DNA from: Escherichia phage KIT03
Sequence record: AP018932
Length of the DNA: 64,000 bases
Reading direction: 5' to 3' (one strand)
Shown here piece after piece: positions 4,171 through 55,501 of the stretch. Each line of letters begins with the position of its first letter. The first letter of the stretch is position 1. The position numbers and the translations under genes were made by a program. Below the pieces are notes generated by a model, which searched no databases, was not told where the DNA came from, and saw only the letters and a program-made list of their open reading frames with translations.

Positions 4171-5301
4171 TTATGGATAAGTATAGATGATACCATTTTC
4201 TAAAGCAGTTTTATGAATGATGTATCCATTACGTGATTCTTGAACATCAACTTCTGGATAGTCTTTCATCATCTTCTGAAGAGTGTAACGATGCAGGTAA
4301 TATTTACTATCTGGATCGTCAGTTTTCCAATCTTTACCTTCTTCAGTCATTTTTTGGATTTCATCCATAACCCACCAACCGCACCAGATGTAAGCTGAAG
4401 TACGGTGTGGAAGAGGATGAACATAAGGCAATTCACCTTCTGGTTCCGGAGCAACTTTATCAGTCACTTGAACTTGACCTGTTGTTTTAGCTGTTTTGCT
4501 ATCATAATCAGTTGCTGCAACGACAGCAGTAACTTCAATAGTTTGACTTCCAACAGATGAGGTATCGACAGTATATACGTTAGTTGACCCTTCTACAGGA
4601 GAAGAATCTTTCTTCCACGAGTAAGTAATTTGTGCTTCTTCTGGAGCATCCGTAACATTAGCCGTAAATGTAGCCGAAGCATCTTGCTGAACGTTAATAG
4701 AAGGAGGAGTCAATGTAACCTGTGGATTCATTGTCTTCTTATTAACCGTTAATGATACTTCATTCGAAGTAACTTCCTTTTCATTGTAATTTTCAGCAGT
4801 TACTTGGGCTACGCATTTAATTCTTTTTACTCCACTTGTAGTTGGAGTATAGCTAAATGTAGAGTTAGTTTCTCCACCAACTTGTGAATCATCTACATAC
4901 CACTGATACGTAGCAGATGCGCCTGATGGCTGCGAAGCCAAAGCAGCGGTAAATTTAACAGCTGTTCCAATCACTCCAGCCGCAGGACTAGCAGGAGTTA
5001 CGGCTAAGGTAGTCGTCTGTGTCTTATTTTTAACTGTGATAGTTGTTGTCGCTTCAGCCGTTTCCGGGCCTCCTTCAGAAAGTGTATTTGTTGCAACTAC
5101 TTTAATAGTCTTTTGACCAGCAGGACCTTTTAATACATAATCAAAAGTTGCTTCAGACCCATCTTGTGGAGCATTATCTACACTCCAAGCATAAGTAATA
5201 GTTCCACCTCCAGTTTCACCACTGGGTGCAGCAGTAAACTGCTTAGTCTCATCTATAACTCCAGTAGGTGTTTTAGGAGTTATATCAACTGTAAAAGCCA
5301 T
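4171..5301 (-). CDS. hoc: highly immunogenic outer capsid protein Hoc (Ig-like domains)
   Basis: 376-aa ORF with repeated Ig-like segments (TYSW/TYQWY motifs). Confidence 0.93.
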   Translation of the reverse strand: MAFTVDITPKTPTGVIDETKQFTAAPSGETGGGTITYAWSVDNAPQDGSEATFDYVLKGPAGQKTIKVVATNTLSEGGPETAEATTTITVKNKTQTTTLAVTPASPAAGVIGTAVKFTAALASQPSGASATYQWYVDDSQVGGETNSTFSYTPTTSGVKRIKCVAQVTAENYNEKEVTSNEVSLTVNKKTMNPQVTLTPPSINVQQDASATFTANVTDAPEEAQITYSWKKDSSPVEGSTNVYTVDTSSVGSQTIEVTAVVAATDYDSKTAKTTGQVQVTDKVAPEPEGELPYVHPLPHRTSAYIWCGWWVMDEIQKMTEEGKDWKTDDPDSKYYLHRYTLQKMMKDYPEVDVQESRNGYIIHKTALENGIIYTYP

Positions 5302-49995: not shown

Positions 49996-50652
49996 ATGGC
50001 TGATTTAAAAGTAGGTTCAACAACTGGAGGCTCTGTCATTTGGCATCAAGGAAATTTTCCATTGAATCCAGCCGGTGACGATGTACTCTATAAATCATTT
50101 AAAATATATTCAGAATATAATAAACCACAAGCAACTGATAACGATTTCGTTTCTAAAGCTAATGGTGGTACTTATTTAAATAAAGTAATTTTTAATAAAG
50201 GAATGACTGTTCCTGGTACTGGGTCAGGTGACAACGGTATTTTTGCCGGTCCTGGTGATAATGCCACATATGATACTACAAATATGGATATTGTTTCATG
50301 GTATGGTATCGGCTTTAAATCATCACAAGGGGCAGCAGGTAGAACTGTAGTAATTAACACACGAAACGGAGATATTAGCTCAAAGGGTGTAATTGAAGCA
50401 TCACAAATACGCGCAACTTCGTTATCACCAGTAAATAATTATGACCTTACGAGAAAAGATTATGTTGATGGAGCAATAAATATTGTTACAACAAATGCAA
50501 ACTCTAGAGTATTACGCTCTGGAGACACTATGATAGGAAATTTAACTGCGCCAAACCTTTTTTCACAGAATCCTGCATCTCAACCCTCGCATGTTCCGCG
50601 ATTTGACCAAATCGTAATTAAGGATTCTGTTCAAGATTTCGGCTATTATTAA
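49996..50652 (+). CDS. 36: long tail fibre distal connector gp36
   Basis: 218-aa ORF. Confidence 0.93.
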   Translation: MADLKVGSTTGGSVIWHQGNFPLNPAGDDVLYKSFKIYSEYNKPQATDNDFVSKANGGTYLNKVIFNKGMTVPGTGSGDNGIFAGPGDNATYDTTNMDIVSWYGIGFKSSQGAAGRTVVINTRNGDISSKGVIEASQIRATSLSPVNNYDLTRKDYVDGAINIVTTNANSRVLRSGDTMIGNLTAPNLFSQNPASQPSHVPRFDQIVIKDSVQDFGYY

Positions 50653-50660
50653 GAGGACTT

Positions 50661-53600
50661 ATGGCTACTTTAAAACAAATACAATTTAAAAGAAGCAAAA
50701 CGGCAGGTCAACGTCCAGCTGCTTCAGTATTAGCCGAAGGTGAATTGGCTATAAACTTAAAAGACCGTGTACTTTTTACTAAAGATGACCAAGGAAATAT
50801 TATTGATTTAGGTTTTGCTAAAGGCGGTAGTATTGACGGGAATGTTATTCATAAAGGCAATTATAACCAAACTGGCGATTATACTTTAAACGGTACATTC
50901 ACCCAGACTGGTAATTTTAATTTAACCGGTATTGCTCGAGTAACTCGTGATATTATTGCTGCTGGGCAGATTATGACTGAAGGCGGAGAACTTATTACAA
51001 AAAGTTCAGGAACGGCACACGTTCGTTTTCATGATTCCGCCGACCGTGAACGCGGTATTATTTTTTCTCCTGCTAATGACGGTTTAACTACACAAGTAAT
51101 TAACATCAGAGTTCAAGATTACAAAGCCGGTTCAGAAAGCACTTTCGCTTTTAATGGAAATGGTTTGTTTTCTTCACCAGAAGTTTTTGGGTGGAAATCT
51201 GTATCAACTCCGGTAATTTATACCAATAAAGTTATCACCAATAAAAAAGTTAAAGATGATTATGACATCTATTCGATGGCAGATAATGTTCCATTATCTG
51301 AAAGCACTACTGCTATTAATCATCTTCGTGTTATGCGTAATGCAGTCGGTTCTGGTATTTTCCATGAAGTTAAAGATAATGATGGAATAACATGGTATAG
51401 TGGAGATGGATTAGATGCTTATCTGTGGTCATTTACCTGGAGCGGCGGAATTAAATCAAGTCACTCAATTTCCATCGGTTTAACACCCGGACCTAAGGAT
51501 TACTCAATATTAGGACCGTCTAGTATCGCTTTAGGAGATAATGATACTGGATTTAAATGGCATCAAGACGGATATTATTTCAGTGTTAATAATGGCACAA
51601 AAACGTTTTTATTTAGCCCTAGCGAAACAACTAGCCTAAGAAAATTTGTAGCTGGATATTCTACTAATGGAACCGATTTAACTACTCCTCCGACTGAAAA
51701 CTATGCTCTTGCTACTGTCGTGACATATCATGACAATAACGCGTTTGGAGATGGTCAGACTCTTTTGGGGTATTATCAAGGCGGTAGATATCACCATTAC
51801 TTTCGCGGAAGAGGAACAACTAATATTAATACTGCTGGAGGGTTATTAGTTACTCCTGGTAATATTGATGTTATTGGCGGTTCTGTTAATATCGATGGTA
51901 GAAATAATGCTTCTACAGCTCTGTTTAAAGGTAACACAACAGGTAGTAGTTCTGTGGATAACATGACAATTTCTGTGTGGGGTAATACATTTACTAATCC
52001 AAGCGAAGGTAATCGCAAAAATGTCATGGAAATTTCCGATGCAACTAGCTGGATGAGCTATATTCAAAGACTTACTACTGGTGAAGTAGAAATGAACGTT
52101 AACGGTTCATTTGAATCATCTGGTGTTACTGCTGGAAATAGAGGAGTTCACACAACAGGCGAAATTTCATCTGGAGCAGTGAATGCTCTTCGCATTTGGA
52201 ATGCAGATTATGGAGCCATTTTTAGACGTTCAGAAGGTAGTCTTCATATTATTCCAACTGCTTATGGTGAAGGCAAAAATGGTGATATCGGTCCACTTCG
52301 TCCATTTAGTATTGCTTTGGATACTGGTAAGGTTGTTATTCCAGATTTAGAATCAAGTTATAACACGTTTGCTGCAAATGGCTACATTAAATTTGCTGGT
52401 CATGGCGCGGGTGCAGGTGGTTATGATATTCAGTATTCACAAGCTGCTCCTATTTTCCAAGAAATCGATGATGCTGCTGTAAGCAAATATTATCCTATTG
52501 TTAAACAGAAGTTTTTAAATGGTAAAGCTGTCTGGTCTTTGGGTACTGAAATTAATTCTGGTACATTTGTTTTACATCATTTGAAAGAAGATGGTTCACA
52601 AGGCCATACATCAAGATTTAATGCTGATGGTACAGTTAACTTCCCGGATAACGTTCAGGTCGGCGGCGGTGAAGCTACTATTGCTCGTAATGGTAATATC
52701 TTCTCTGATATTTGGAAAACATTTACTTCTGCCGGAGATACTACAAATATTCGCGATGCAATAGCTACTCGTGTTGCCAAAGAAGGCGATACGATGACTG
52801 GCAAATTAATCGTTAAAAGAGGCTCTGACGCTATTAACATTGCTGCCGATGAAAATGATTCTTGCTATTTACTTGGAACATCGGGTGGAGCGAATTCATG
52901 GTACATCGGTAAAGGAGGAGCAGATGACACTGCTTCATTTTATAATTTCAAAACTACCGCAGGAATTACTCTTAATAGTGTTGGTGATATTGATTTTAAC
53001 GTTAAAAATCAAGCTACTGCAGCTTCATTAAATTTTTATCGTTTATATTTAAATGGAAGACAGTGGACAGCTACACAAGGACATGGATATAATAATCAAT
53101 GGCAAACAGAAGCCCCATTCTTCGTTGACTTTGGCGAATCTGTTCCGAAAGATAGTTATATGCCTATAATTAAAGGAAGAAGCCAAATCATTAACGAAGG
53201 ATATGCCACAAAGGCAGATTTTGGTATTATTCGATTAGGCGGAAATGCTACTTGGGGAAATGCAGTAATTCGTGTTGGTTCTGCGGAAAGCGGAGATAGC
53301 AGTCATCCTAATGCAATATTTGTGTTTCAGGCTAATGGTGATTTTAAAGCTCCGGCTGGCCTTCGTGCTGGTGTTAACTTGGGCGTCGGCACAATTCCAG
53401 TATGGGGCGGAGCATCTATCGCCATCGGGGATGATGATACCGGTTTAGTTCATGGCGGTGATGGTCGAATTAATATGTATGCTAACTCGCAGCATATAGC
53501 ATCATGGGGCACAATGTATCAATCTCATCCAGGCCTTTGGGATTCGAATGGAGCTTTTTGGACAGAAGTTGGCAAAGCAATTATTTCTCATGGCCATTTA

Positions 53601-53987
53601 GTTCAGGCGAATGACAGCTATTCAACGTATGTCCGCGATGTTTATGTCCGCTCTGATATTCGTGTTAAAAAGGATCTAGTTAAATTTGAAAATGCTTCTG
53701 AGAAGCTTTCAAAAATTAATGGTTACACTTATATGCAGAAGCGAGGCCTAGATGAAGAAGGTAATCAGAAATGGGAACCAAACGCTGGGTTAATTGCTCA
53801 AGAAGTTCAAGTTATTTTACCTGAATTGGTTGAAGGCGATCAGGATAGTGAAGCTTTACTTCGTTTGAACTATAACGGTGTAATTGGTTTAAATACAGCT
53901 GCAATCAATGAGCATACTGCAGAAATTGCAGAACTTAAGTCAGAGATTGAAGAGCTTAAAAAATTAGTTAAATCATTGTTAAAATAA
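50661..53987 (+). CDS. 37: long tail fibre distal subunit gp37 with C-terminal intramolecular chaperone (self-cleaving) domain
   Basis: 1108-aa ORF; C-terminus carries an SDIRVKKD...coiled-coil region typical of endosialidase-type chaperone domains. Confidence 0.93.
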
Positions 53988-54018
53988 AATGAGGGGCTTC
54001 GGCCCCTTGGAGGTTTAT

Positions 54019-54813
54019 ATGGCAGTTGAAGGACCGTGGGTAGGATGGTCTGCGAGGGTACAAACTGGAGACCCTTGGATGGGTGGTGCCGCGCTGAGAT
54101 TGAGAATGGGAATTCCGTTTTGGATGAGTAATATGATAGGTCGATCTGTTGAAGTAATTCACACCCTTGGAGCGGACCATAACTTTAATGGTCAATGGTT
54201 CCGAGATAGATGTTTTGAGGCAGGTAGTGCACCTATAGTGTTTAATATTACCGGAAATTTGGTATCATATTCTAGAGACGTTCCTTTATTCTTCATGTAC
54301 GGAGATACACCTAATGAATATGTTCAGTTGAATATTGGTGGCGGCGTCCATATGTGGGGTAGAGGTGGACAAGGTGGATGGACTCATTCCGGCGGAGATG
54401 GTAATGGTCAACAAGGTGGTCATTGTATTCAAAATGACATCGGTGGACGATTAAGAATTAATAACGGTGGAGTAATTTGTGGTGGAGGTGGAGGTGGAGG
54501 TGGTATCGCTTATCGTCCTCACTCTGGTGCAAATTGGCAAGATATTGGTGGTGGTGGAGGAAGACCATTTGGCCCAGGAGGAGGCGGAGGTTATTCCGGC
54601 GGCGCAGCTTCTTATGATGGCCCAGGAGGTGGTTATAATTATGGTAATGCTCACTCTGGCCAGGGTGGTGATGCTGGCGCAAATGGACAAAATGCCTGGT
54701 ATGATGGCGGTAAAGTTCTAAAAGTTGGAGCTGGTGGCGCTGCCGGATATGCTGTTATAGGATCAGCTCCAACATGGCAAAATGTTGGAGTAATATATGG
54801 TCCAAGGGTATAA
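54019..54813 (+). CDS. 38: T2-type tail fibre adhesin gp38 (glycine-rich motifs separating variable segments)
   Basis: start [10 protein letters not shown] with GGAGG RBS; poly-Gly runs (GGGGGGGG, GGGGG) interleaved with variable segments. Confidence 0.88.
54481..54504 (+). repeat. (GGTGGA)n simple-sequence repeat encoding poly-glycine in gp38
   Basis: ggtggaggtggaggtggaggtggt. Confidence 0.8.
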
Positions 54814-54844: not shown

Positions 54845-55501
54845 ATGGCAGCACCTAGAATATCATTTTCGCCCTCTGATATTCTATTTGGTGTTCTAGA
54901 TCGCTTGTTCAAAGATAACGCTACCGGGAAAGTTCTTGCTTCCCGGGTAGCTGTCGTAATTCTTTTGTTTATGATGGCGATTGTTTGGTATAGGGGAGAT
55001 AGTTTCTTTGAGTACTATAAGCAATCAAAGTATGAAACATACAGTGAAATTATTGAAAAGGAAAGAAATGCACGCTTTGAATCTGTCGCCCTGGAACAAC
55101 TCCAGATAGTTCACATATCATCTGAGGCAGACTTTAGTGCGGTGTATTCTTTCCGCCCTAAAAACTTAAACTATTTTGTCGATATTATAGCATATGAAGG
55201 AAAATTACCTTCAACAATAAGTGAAAAATCACTTGGAGGATATCCTGTTGATAAAACTATGGATGAATATGCAGTTCATTTAAATGGACGTCATTATTAT
55301 TCCAACTCAAAATTTGCTTTTTTACCAACTAAAAAGCCTACTCCCGAAATAAACTACATGTACAGTTGTCCATATTTTAATTTGGATAATATCTATGCTG
55401 GAACGATAACCATGTACTGGTATAGAAATGATCATATAAGTAATGACCGCCTTGAATCAATATGCGCCCAGGCGGCCAGAATATTAGGAAGGGCTAAATA
55501 A
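54845..55501 (+). CDS. t: holin T
   Basis: 218-aa ORF recognised as T4 holin; single TM segment. Confidence 0.96.
   Translation: MAAPRISFSPSDILFGVLDRLFKDNATGKVLASRVAVVILLFMMAIVWYRGDSFFEYYKQSKYETYSEIIEKERNARFESVALEQLQIVHISSEADFSAVYSFRPKNLNYFVDIIAYEGKLPSTISEKSLGGYPVDKTMDEYAVHLNGRHYYSNSKFAFLPTKKPTPEINYMYSCPYFNLDNIYAGTITMYWYRNDHISNDRLESICAQAARILGRAK

Follow-up and report, generated by a model that had tools for sequence, protein, structure and literature searches.

The gene at positions 54019..54813 of the window, the whole 64,000-nucleotide stretch of Escherichia phage KIT03 (sequence record AP018932) that was analysed, belongs to a Tequatrovirus (T2/T6-like) phage and encodes a gp38 receptor-binding adhesin of the T2/T6 type. 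Viewed as a whole, the evidence makes it very probable that this protein is an OmpA-binding gp38 of the RB32/AV119/FL08 'type 1' group, with a polyglycine-II (PGII) core, glycine runs constrained in length, and a history of genetic exchange at the level of entire cassettes. As proposed here, a monomeric adhesin would dock through its N-terminal ~40 residues on the mature gp37 trimer, at its tip; its five glycine-rich motifs (GRMs) would fold to a compact PGII sandwich atop a short beta-helix, from which four hypervariable segments (HVSs) would project as loops that touch an outer-membrane protein at its extracellular loops. The primary receptor would most likely be OmpA, with sensitivity to the structure of the LPS core, and the poly-Gly runs would serve as structural elements under length constraint, not as slippage tracts. 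Changes of host range in this lineage could then arise in two ways: by point substitution of loop residues, 172 and 228 being examples, and by a swap of either the whole HVS1-4 cassette or a module composed of gp37 plus the gp38 N-terminal domain.

The locus and its adhesin gene

The relevant genes lie in the order gp36-gp37-gp38-t, with the following features:

49996-50652, gp36
50661..53987, + strand, gene 37, coding for the 1108-residue distal long-tail-fibre subunit that carries gp38 (Pfam and homology to 6f45_A)
53992-54007, + strand, GC-rich intercistronic hairpin AGGGGC-TTCG-GCCCCT, directly 5' of the gene 38 Shine-Dalgarno sequence
54019..54813, + strand, gene 38, coding for the T2-type long-tail-fibre tip adhesin of 264 residues plus stop (ORF, Pfam and PDB matches)
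54845-55501, holin t

Gene 38 extends from an ATG, placed 5 nt downstream of a Shine-Dalgarno sequence (GGAGG, 54009-54013), to a TAA stop at 54811-54813. An alternative frame of 274 residues opening at ATG 53989 was rejected, and 54019 taken as the real start, because the homologues all begin MAV while the upstream ATG falls within the intergenic hairpin region and has no Shine-Dalgarno sequence of its own. Minus-strand frames of 48-79 residues within the gene were likewise dismissed, as frame artefacts of GGN-rich DNA. The hairpin occupies part of the 31-nt spacer that separates the gp37 stop from the gene 38 ATG; comparison of sequences by eye placed a hairpin of different sequence at the equivalent position in RB32, T2 and IMG/VR loci.

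The upstream partner, gp37, contains a C-terminal intramolecular chaperone domain (Peptidase_S74, 1.4e-11, residues 998-1057, 53652-53831), and its last 194 residues (915-1108) show homology to the gp37 chain of S16 in the gp37-gp38 complex 6f45_A (7.3e-45). With an S16/T2-type gp37 tip and chaperone on one side and holin t on the other, the surroundings are those of a T2-type gp38: the locus is a complete T2-type arrangement in which a self-chaperoning gp37 is capped by a gp38 adhesin, and not the T4 arrangement.

A Pfam scan of gp38 returned two families only at E<=0.01, neither of them a tail-fibre-assembly chaperone family: GP38 (PF05268; 1.3e-68, 231.6 bits against a cut-off of 25) over residues 45-264 and the entire profile (positions 1-218/218), and Gp38_N (PF21721; 7e-19, 68 bits, cut-off 25) over residues 1-40. 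Sequence matches in the PDB were to the PP01 gp38 binding domain (9v85, 2.8e-73) and to S16 gp38 (6f45_D, 3.3e-48). An AlphaFold2 model built on an alignment of 44 sequences had a mean pLDDT of 87, with low values (54-65) confined to the N-terminal ~40 residues, as expected of a domain that folds on its gp37 partner. When that model was submitted to Foldseek the same two structures were recovered (9v85_C, E 8e-28, TM 0.86; 6f45_D, E 5e-24, TM 0.84), and nothing else scored below E=1. The predicted structure thus has the three-domain fold, and its match in fold to those two entries suggests a PGII core; in the published gp38 structures the GRMs form a three-layer PGII sandwich with the HVS loops projecting.

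The GenBank label carried by the wV7 and HY03 orthologues, 'distal long tail fiber assembly catalyst', would suit a quite different role, in which gp38 is only a T4-type assembly chaperone for gp37, is missing from the virion, and leaves gp37 itself to read the receptor. Such a role is barely credible given that the matching folds are those of virion-tip adhesins crystallised on gp37, that gp37 has both an intramolecular chaperone and an S16-like tip, and that swaps of the HVS block carry specificity across in RB32. The identity with the T4-type chaperone was rejected, both for want of a match to the assembly families and because a protein of 264 residues with 27% glycine was being compared with a short one devoid of glycine-rich motifs. 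Placement of the adhesin at the virion fibre tip, where it would mediate adsorption, is inferred from the structure of the S16 complex, from cross-linking in PP01 and from the RB32 HVS-block swaps. The first-pass annotation had already described a 264-residue glycine-rich gp38 distinct from the T4-type chaperone, with the architecture of a T2/T6-family adhesin: the ORF, Pfam and structure matches agree with the first of these claims, and the second is borne out by an alternation of GRMs and HVSs in the 44-sequence alignment, laid out as in Trojet 2011.

Segments, glycine runs and routes of exchange

The borders of the GRMs and HVSs were drawn from the 44-sequence alignment, in which glycine-rich blocks that are invariant or nearly so are separated by variable stretches to give five GRMs and four HVSs, and the loop definitions of PP01 were mapped through the 9v85 sequence alignment:

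54019..54138, + strand, N-terminal attachment domain, residues 1-40, predicted to dock on the gp37 trimer tip (Gp38_N)
54139..54357, + strand, conserved beta-helix domain, residues 41-113 (alignment; longest DNA homology to heterologous gp38 alleles)
54358..54378, + strand, GRM1, residues 114-120, GRGGQGG (G114, R115, G116, G117 and G119 invariant in 44 sequences)
54379..54414, + strand, HVS1, residues 121-132, equivalent to PP01 loop A (segment identities)
54415..54504, + strand, GRM2, residues 133-162, with the Gly8 run at its end (invariant G133, G134, I137, N139, G142, L145, I147, I153 and G156-G160)
54481..54503, + strand, perfect (GGTGGA)x3.8 tandem repeat encoding the Gly8 run (Tandem Repeats Finder)
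54505..54546, + strand, HVS2, residues 163-176, equivalent to PP01 loop B and holding N172, codon 54532-54534 (alignment)
54547..54591, + strand, GRM3, residues 177-191, with two Gly5 runs (invariant G180, G181, R182, P183, G185 and G188)
54592..54657, + strand, HVS3, residues 192-213, equivalent to PP01 loops C and D (segment identities)
54658..54690, + strand, GRM4, residues 214-224 (invariant G214, G216, G217 and G223)
54691..54726, + strand, HVS4, residues 225-236, equivalent to PP01 loop E and holding Y228, codon 54700-54702 (alignment)
54727..54810, + strand, GRM5 and conserved C-terminal strand, residues 237-264 (alignment)

The attachment domain (residues 1-40) is of the wV7/AV119/Ac3 type (98-100% identical) and not of the T6/RB32 type (50% identical to RB32, T6 and M1). 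Glycine accounts for 71 of the 264 residues (26.9%), and for 36.6% over residues 112-264. The poly-Gly runs reported earlier between the variable segments are indeed present: a Gly8 run at residues 155-162 (54481-54504, coded GGT GGA GGT GGA GGT GGA GGT GGT) and two Gly5 runs at residues 177-181 (54547-54561) and 187-191 (54577-54591), to which can be added Gly3 runs at residues 107-109 and 203-205.

The first-pass annotation had also called the GGT/GGA repeats 'slippery'. The perfect array is real, and together with the other GGN runs it could be regarded as a diversification device, slippage or short-homology recombination serving to alter loop length or shuffle HVSs. The length of the Gly8 run is nevertheless constant throughout ~40 type-1 cluster representatives (HVS2 = IAYRxHSGAxW), two of which have a point substitution and none a change of length, so that the repeat-number polymorphism among close relatives that marks a contingency locus was not seen in this set; in other HVS2 types the long run consists of 6, 7 or 9 glycines. 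Nor is a nucleotide repeat conserved: among the relatives compared, the perfect GGT/GGA alternation is common only to RB32 and wV7, IMG/VR relatives have the glycine codons scrambled, and AV119 encodes the same protein run as GGT GGC GGA GGC GGT GGT GGC GGC. A fixed length combined with scrambled synonymous codons argues for structural constraint, or selection on glycine number, rather than slippage, and the slippage reading of the array is not supported by these sequence comparisons.

The recombination half of the same proposal draws on published suggestions that the GRMs are recombination sites (Lutz 2025; Trojet 2011), on imperfect direct repeats (family D3) linking, over a distance of 66 nt, the glycine runs of GRM2 and GRM3, on four database gp38 variants of other types (P0048, P0084, P0088 and P0090) from which exactly HVS2 is missing and the two glycine runs are fused, and on an engineered CM8 x EV240 cross that swapped only from HVS2 onward (2026 preprint). 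As the HVS2-lacking variants and the cross demonstrate, short-homology events at glycine runs do occur. However, a four-gamete analysis of 91 representatives yielded no quartets between any pair of HVSs as against 6-11 for the N-terminal domain versus the HVSs, a result that depends on an arbitrary 60% identity threshold and a query-biased sequence set, such that rare exchange at inner GRMs could escape detection; clear reassortment between single HVSs was seen in none of the 91. The longest exact DNA matches to heterologous alleles measure 62-65 nt in the beta-helix region; within the GRMs they do not exceed 17 nt, and the poly-Gly runs contain none. Likewise, none of 14 selected RB5 x RB32/33 chimeras had a crossover inside GRM1-GRM5 (Trojet 2011), and the published structures assign the GRMs to the PGII core. 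A diversification device built on the glycine codons is, on balance, improbable.

What the comparisons favour instead is exchange of larger units. Among megablast matches to heterologous gp38 alleles, drawn from 372 phage records, nt 317 and 350 of the gene recur as end points, and the starts fall at nt 1, 81, 103 or 133. Between RB32 and the KIT03 window the binding domain and downstream DNA are shared (98% from 54099 on), whereas RB32 has a T6-type N-terminal domain (50% over residues 1-40) beside a T6-like gp37 that is unrelated. Such joint exchange of gp37 and the gp38 N-terminal domain agrees with Trojet 2011, where the gp37 tip and the gp38 N-terminus were described as co-varying in lock-and-key fashion. 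In Sf23, by contrast, flanks that are 97-98% identical enclose a PP01-like binding cassette: identity drops at gene nt ~310-330, just before GRM1, and recovers at ~730-750, around GRM5 (~54750). Similarity to T2 resumes at 54733. The lineage is clearly mosaic, these alignments pointing to two kinds of exchange: replacement of HVS1-4 as one cassette bordered near GRM1 and GRM5, and replacement of the N-terminal domain along with gp37. The earlier suggestion that the GRMs act as recombination points consequently survives in part: the outer GRMs would mark the cassette borders, as in Sf23, while the inner GRMs, with zero quartets between HVSs and matches of <=17 nt, are not demonstrably used as exchange points in the KIT03 gp38 lineage.

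Predicted receptor and loop residues 172 and 228

Alignment of the individual segments gave identities for HVS1-4 of 100/93/100/92% to RB32, 100/93/86/92% to AV119 and 100/86/86/92% to FL08, so that the four HVSs are essentially those (86-100%) of adhesins whose dependence on OmpA is experimental. Identities to M1, FL18, T6, T2, PP01 and S16 were <=39%, and for HVS1 alone <=17% to M1, T6, T2, PP01 and S16. Near-identity to OmpA-typed adhesins, set against such low values for other binders, leads to OmpA as the predicted receptor. The alignment of variable segments to adhesins of known specificity that the first-pass annotation had proposed as a check therefore returned the OmpA type of RB32, AV119 and FL08, and not that of Tsx, FadL/OmpF or OmpC binders.

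RB32 requires OmpA and is LPS-sensitive, and a 400-bp RB32/33 HVS block moved into RB5 carries the OmpA/LPS specificity along with it (Trojet et al. 2011). AV119 and FL08 are OmpA-dependent, form part of 'type 1', a group able to use each of the eight OmpA loop variants tested, and have modelled OmpA contacts centred on R165-A170, which correspond to R166-A171 in HVS2 of the gp38 considered here (Lutz et al. 2025). A literature search found no receptor experiment for KIT03 (citing papers only), wV7 or Sa45lw, and none came to light for O157 typing phage 7 or fFiEco06. By sequence, it is highly likely that OmpA is the primary receptor of the KIT03-type gp38 and, by analogy with RB32, the protein probably depends on the LPS core as well. 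The view that receptor specificity is set in gp38 stands for primary specificity, which the HVS matches and the results of Trojet 2011 and Lutz 2025 locate here, but it is not set only here: the RB32 type is LPS-sensitive, and a secondary LPS receptor is set by the short fibre gp12 (Trojet 2011 / 2026 preprint).

From residue 47 onward, two loop residues set the protein apart from RB32, RB33 and wV7. Residue 172 is N here and in AV119 and FL08, but K in RB32, RB33 and wV7; residue 228 is Y here, H in RB32, RB33 and wV7, and S in AV119 and FL08. Over gene nt 148-795 these are the only differences from RB32 (at 54534 and 54700), both of them non-synonymous and in loops, with no synonymous change in 648 nt. 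Position 228 is the most variable binding-domain site within the type (Y16, H12, S9, N3 and Q1 in 41 representatives).

It could be argued that N172 and Y228 have retargeted the same adhesin away from OmpA, to OmpC (as in PP01 and S16) or to another porin. A single HVS3 substitution, Q206L, switches the gp38 of RB51/RB68 from OmpF to OmpW (preprint), loop E is published as governing specificity in PP01, and the two non-synonymous differences from RB32 fall in the loop-B and loop-E equivalents; Y228 is absent from every adhesin found with a typed receptor, and KIT03 is reported to infect both O157:H7 and Salmonella, these being also hosts of OmpC binders such as PP01 and S16. Nonetheless, N172 is common to the OmpA-dependent AV119 and FL08, position 228 varies naturally (Y/H/S/N/Q) with both the H and the S variants binding OmpA, type-1 representatives most often have Y there, and the HVSs are no more than 39% identical to those of OmpC binders. 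A receptor other than OmpA is for these reasons distinctly unlikely, and OmpA remains the predicted receptor.

A further combined proposal has a small chance of being correct: that N172 and Y228 would be adaptive host-range substitutions retuning which OmpA loop variants are bound and that, separately, short GGN direct repeats would occasionally delete HVS2 to create a four-loop adhesin class. The loop variants contemplated would include those of E. coli O157:H7 and Salmonella, and the four-loop class is that of P0048, P0084, P0088 and P0090.

The practical gain is small: the allele lets OmpA be predicted as primary receptor for this phage and for the others with the same binding domain (143 records), which helps in the design of phage cocktails that avoid shared routes of resistance. 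For an understanding of gp38 the allele adds nothing new, since its architecture and structure are already in the literature, as are the determinants of specificity and the exchange of cassettes.

Comparison with known gp38 systems

The KIT03-type gp38 is already annotated, belongs to an experimentally studied kind of gene, and is present as the exact allele in public databases. The protein matches the gp38 of Escherichia phage KIT03 at 100% identity and that of wV7 at 99%; for the DNA of gene 38 the identities are 99.9% (Sa45lw), 99.7% (O157 typing phage 7) and 99.6% (wV7). For the surrounding 24 kb the best match in the phage collection was Sa45lw (Tequatrovirus), at ~97%. Over residues 107-264 the protein has exact counterparts (100% identity) in fFiEco06, Sa45lw and fHoEco02, and the binding-domain type occurs in 143 phage records, in 73 of them at an identity of at least 90%.

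Among these close relatives, KIT03, Sa45lw, O157 typing phage 7, wV7 and fFiEco06 have the same gene order as that described above. The gp38 of wV7 differs in K172, H228 and one synonymous site and in nothing else, while that of fFiEco06 differs in its N-terminal ~27 codons. RB32 and RB33 match residues 47-264 except for K at 172 and H at 228. The AV119 and FL08 proteins are 95% and 93% identical, with 13 and 19 differing positions respectively; the changes in or near loops include P167V, D200V, G201A, N207Q, A221G and Y228S, and IGA replaces GGGV at residues 107-110.

The OmpC-binding gp38 proteins of PP01 (9V85) and S16 (6F45) share the attachment domain, the beta-helix, and the PGII sandwich with loops A-E (TM 0.84-0.86), as well as a Gly8 run at the equivalent position. 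Their loops, however, are unrelated (HVS identity <=39%), their receptor differs, and loop C is replaced in the present protein by a Gly5 run followed by Tyr. The adhesins of T2 (FadL/OmpF), T6 (Tsx) and M1/FL18 (classical / 'type 2' OmpA) are alike in family, in GRM/HVS layout and in position 3' of gp37, but have HVS identities of only 0-30%, and their long glycine run comprises 7 residues in T2 and 9 in T6, M1 and FL18 compared with the 8 found here. The gp38 of T4, an assembly chaperone that is absent from the virion, shares its gene name and map position with the adhesin described here, yet the two proteins are unrelated.

Intercistronic stem-loop and start of gene 38

Two features were located immediately ahead of the coding region for the 264-aa adhesin gp38 (54019-54813, plus strand):
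53992-54007, GC-rich stem-loop, next to the Shine-Dalgarno sequence on its 5' side
54009-54013, gene 38 Shine-Dalgarno sequence

A GC-rich stem-loop in this position was present in each of the loci examined (compared with L014, 3880-3917; L016, 6049-6086; L002-L012, 1466-1503), and its stem sequence varied from locus to locus, being AGGGGC/GCCCCT in the window as against GAGGGC/GCCCTC in T2, AGGGCC/GGCCCT in L008, L009 and L012, and GGGGGC/GCCCCC in L004. This retention of the structure with differing stems suggests a conserved intercistronic RNA element, which perhaps serves in transcript stability or translation. On the minus strand, the same hairpin also scored as a terminator-like site.

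A mechanical list of open reading frames included a 274-aa frame (53989-54813) beginning at an in-frame upstream ATG. This codon at 53989 was rejected as the start of gene 38: it sits in the hairpin's 5' arm region, no Shine-Dalgarno sequence accompanies it, and homologues lack it.

Variant database forms of gp38

Four database cluster representatives (P0048, P0084, P0088 and P0090), belonging to other specificity types (T6-like, Ac3-like and PP01-like), lacked exactly the hypervariable segment HVS2, with the glycine runs of the flanking conserved motifs GRM2 and GRM3 joined as AIAGGGG(GG)RPFG. These fused runs have the pattern expected for deletion between GGN direct repeats; the four sequences may represent working adhesins, genes that are defective, or errors of assembly.

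The E. coli-derived P0089 (303 aa) carried Peptidase_S74, Gp38_N and GP38 domains in a single chain, and looks like a fusion of the gp37 C-terminus with gp38; loss of a stop codon or faulty annotation may account for it.

Mosaicism of gp37 and the Sf23 cassette

An internal gp37 segment (~52807-53424; residues ~716-921) had flanks 89-97% identical to Shigella phage Sf23 and AV119, and blastn of the segment against these two phages recorded similarity to neither. By this comparison, gp37 itself is mosaic upstream of its gp38-binding tip. One repeat was listed at its extreme C-terminus:
53920-53959, 21-nt tandem repeat, 1.9 copies, 84% match

It encodes a 15-residue heptad-like stretch in the coiled coil of the intramolecular chaperone.

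Sf23 (locus L018) is a close genomic relative: gp36, the greater part of gp37, t and the sequence beyond t are 97-98% identical to their counterparts in the window. When its 4501-5277 region was compared with 54019-54813, its binding cassette proved to be PP01-like (OmpC-type), replacing the OmpA-type cassette that the window has there; this is a natural swap of the whole binding cassette.
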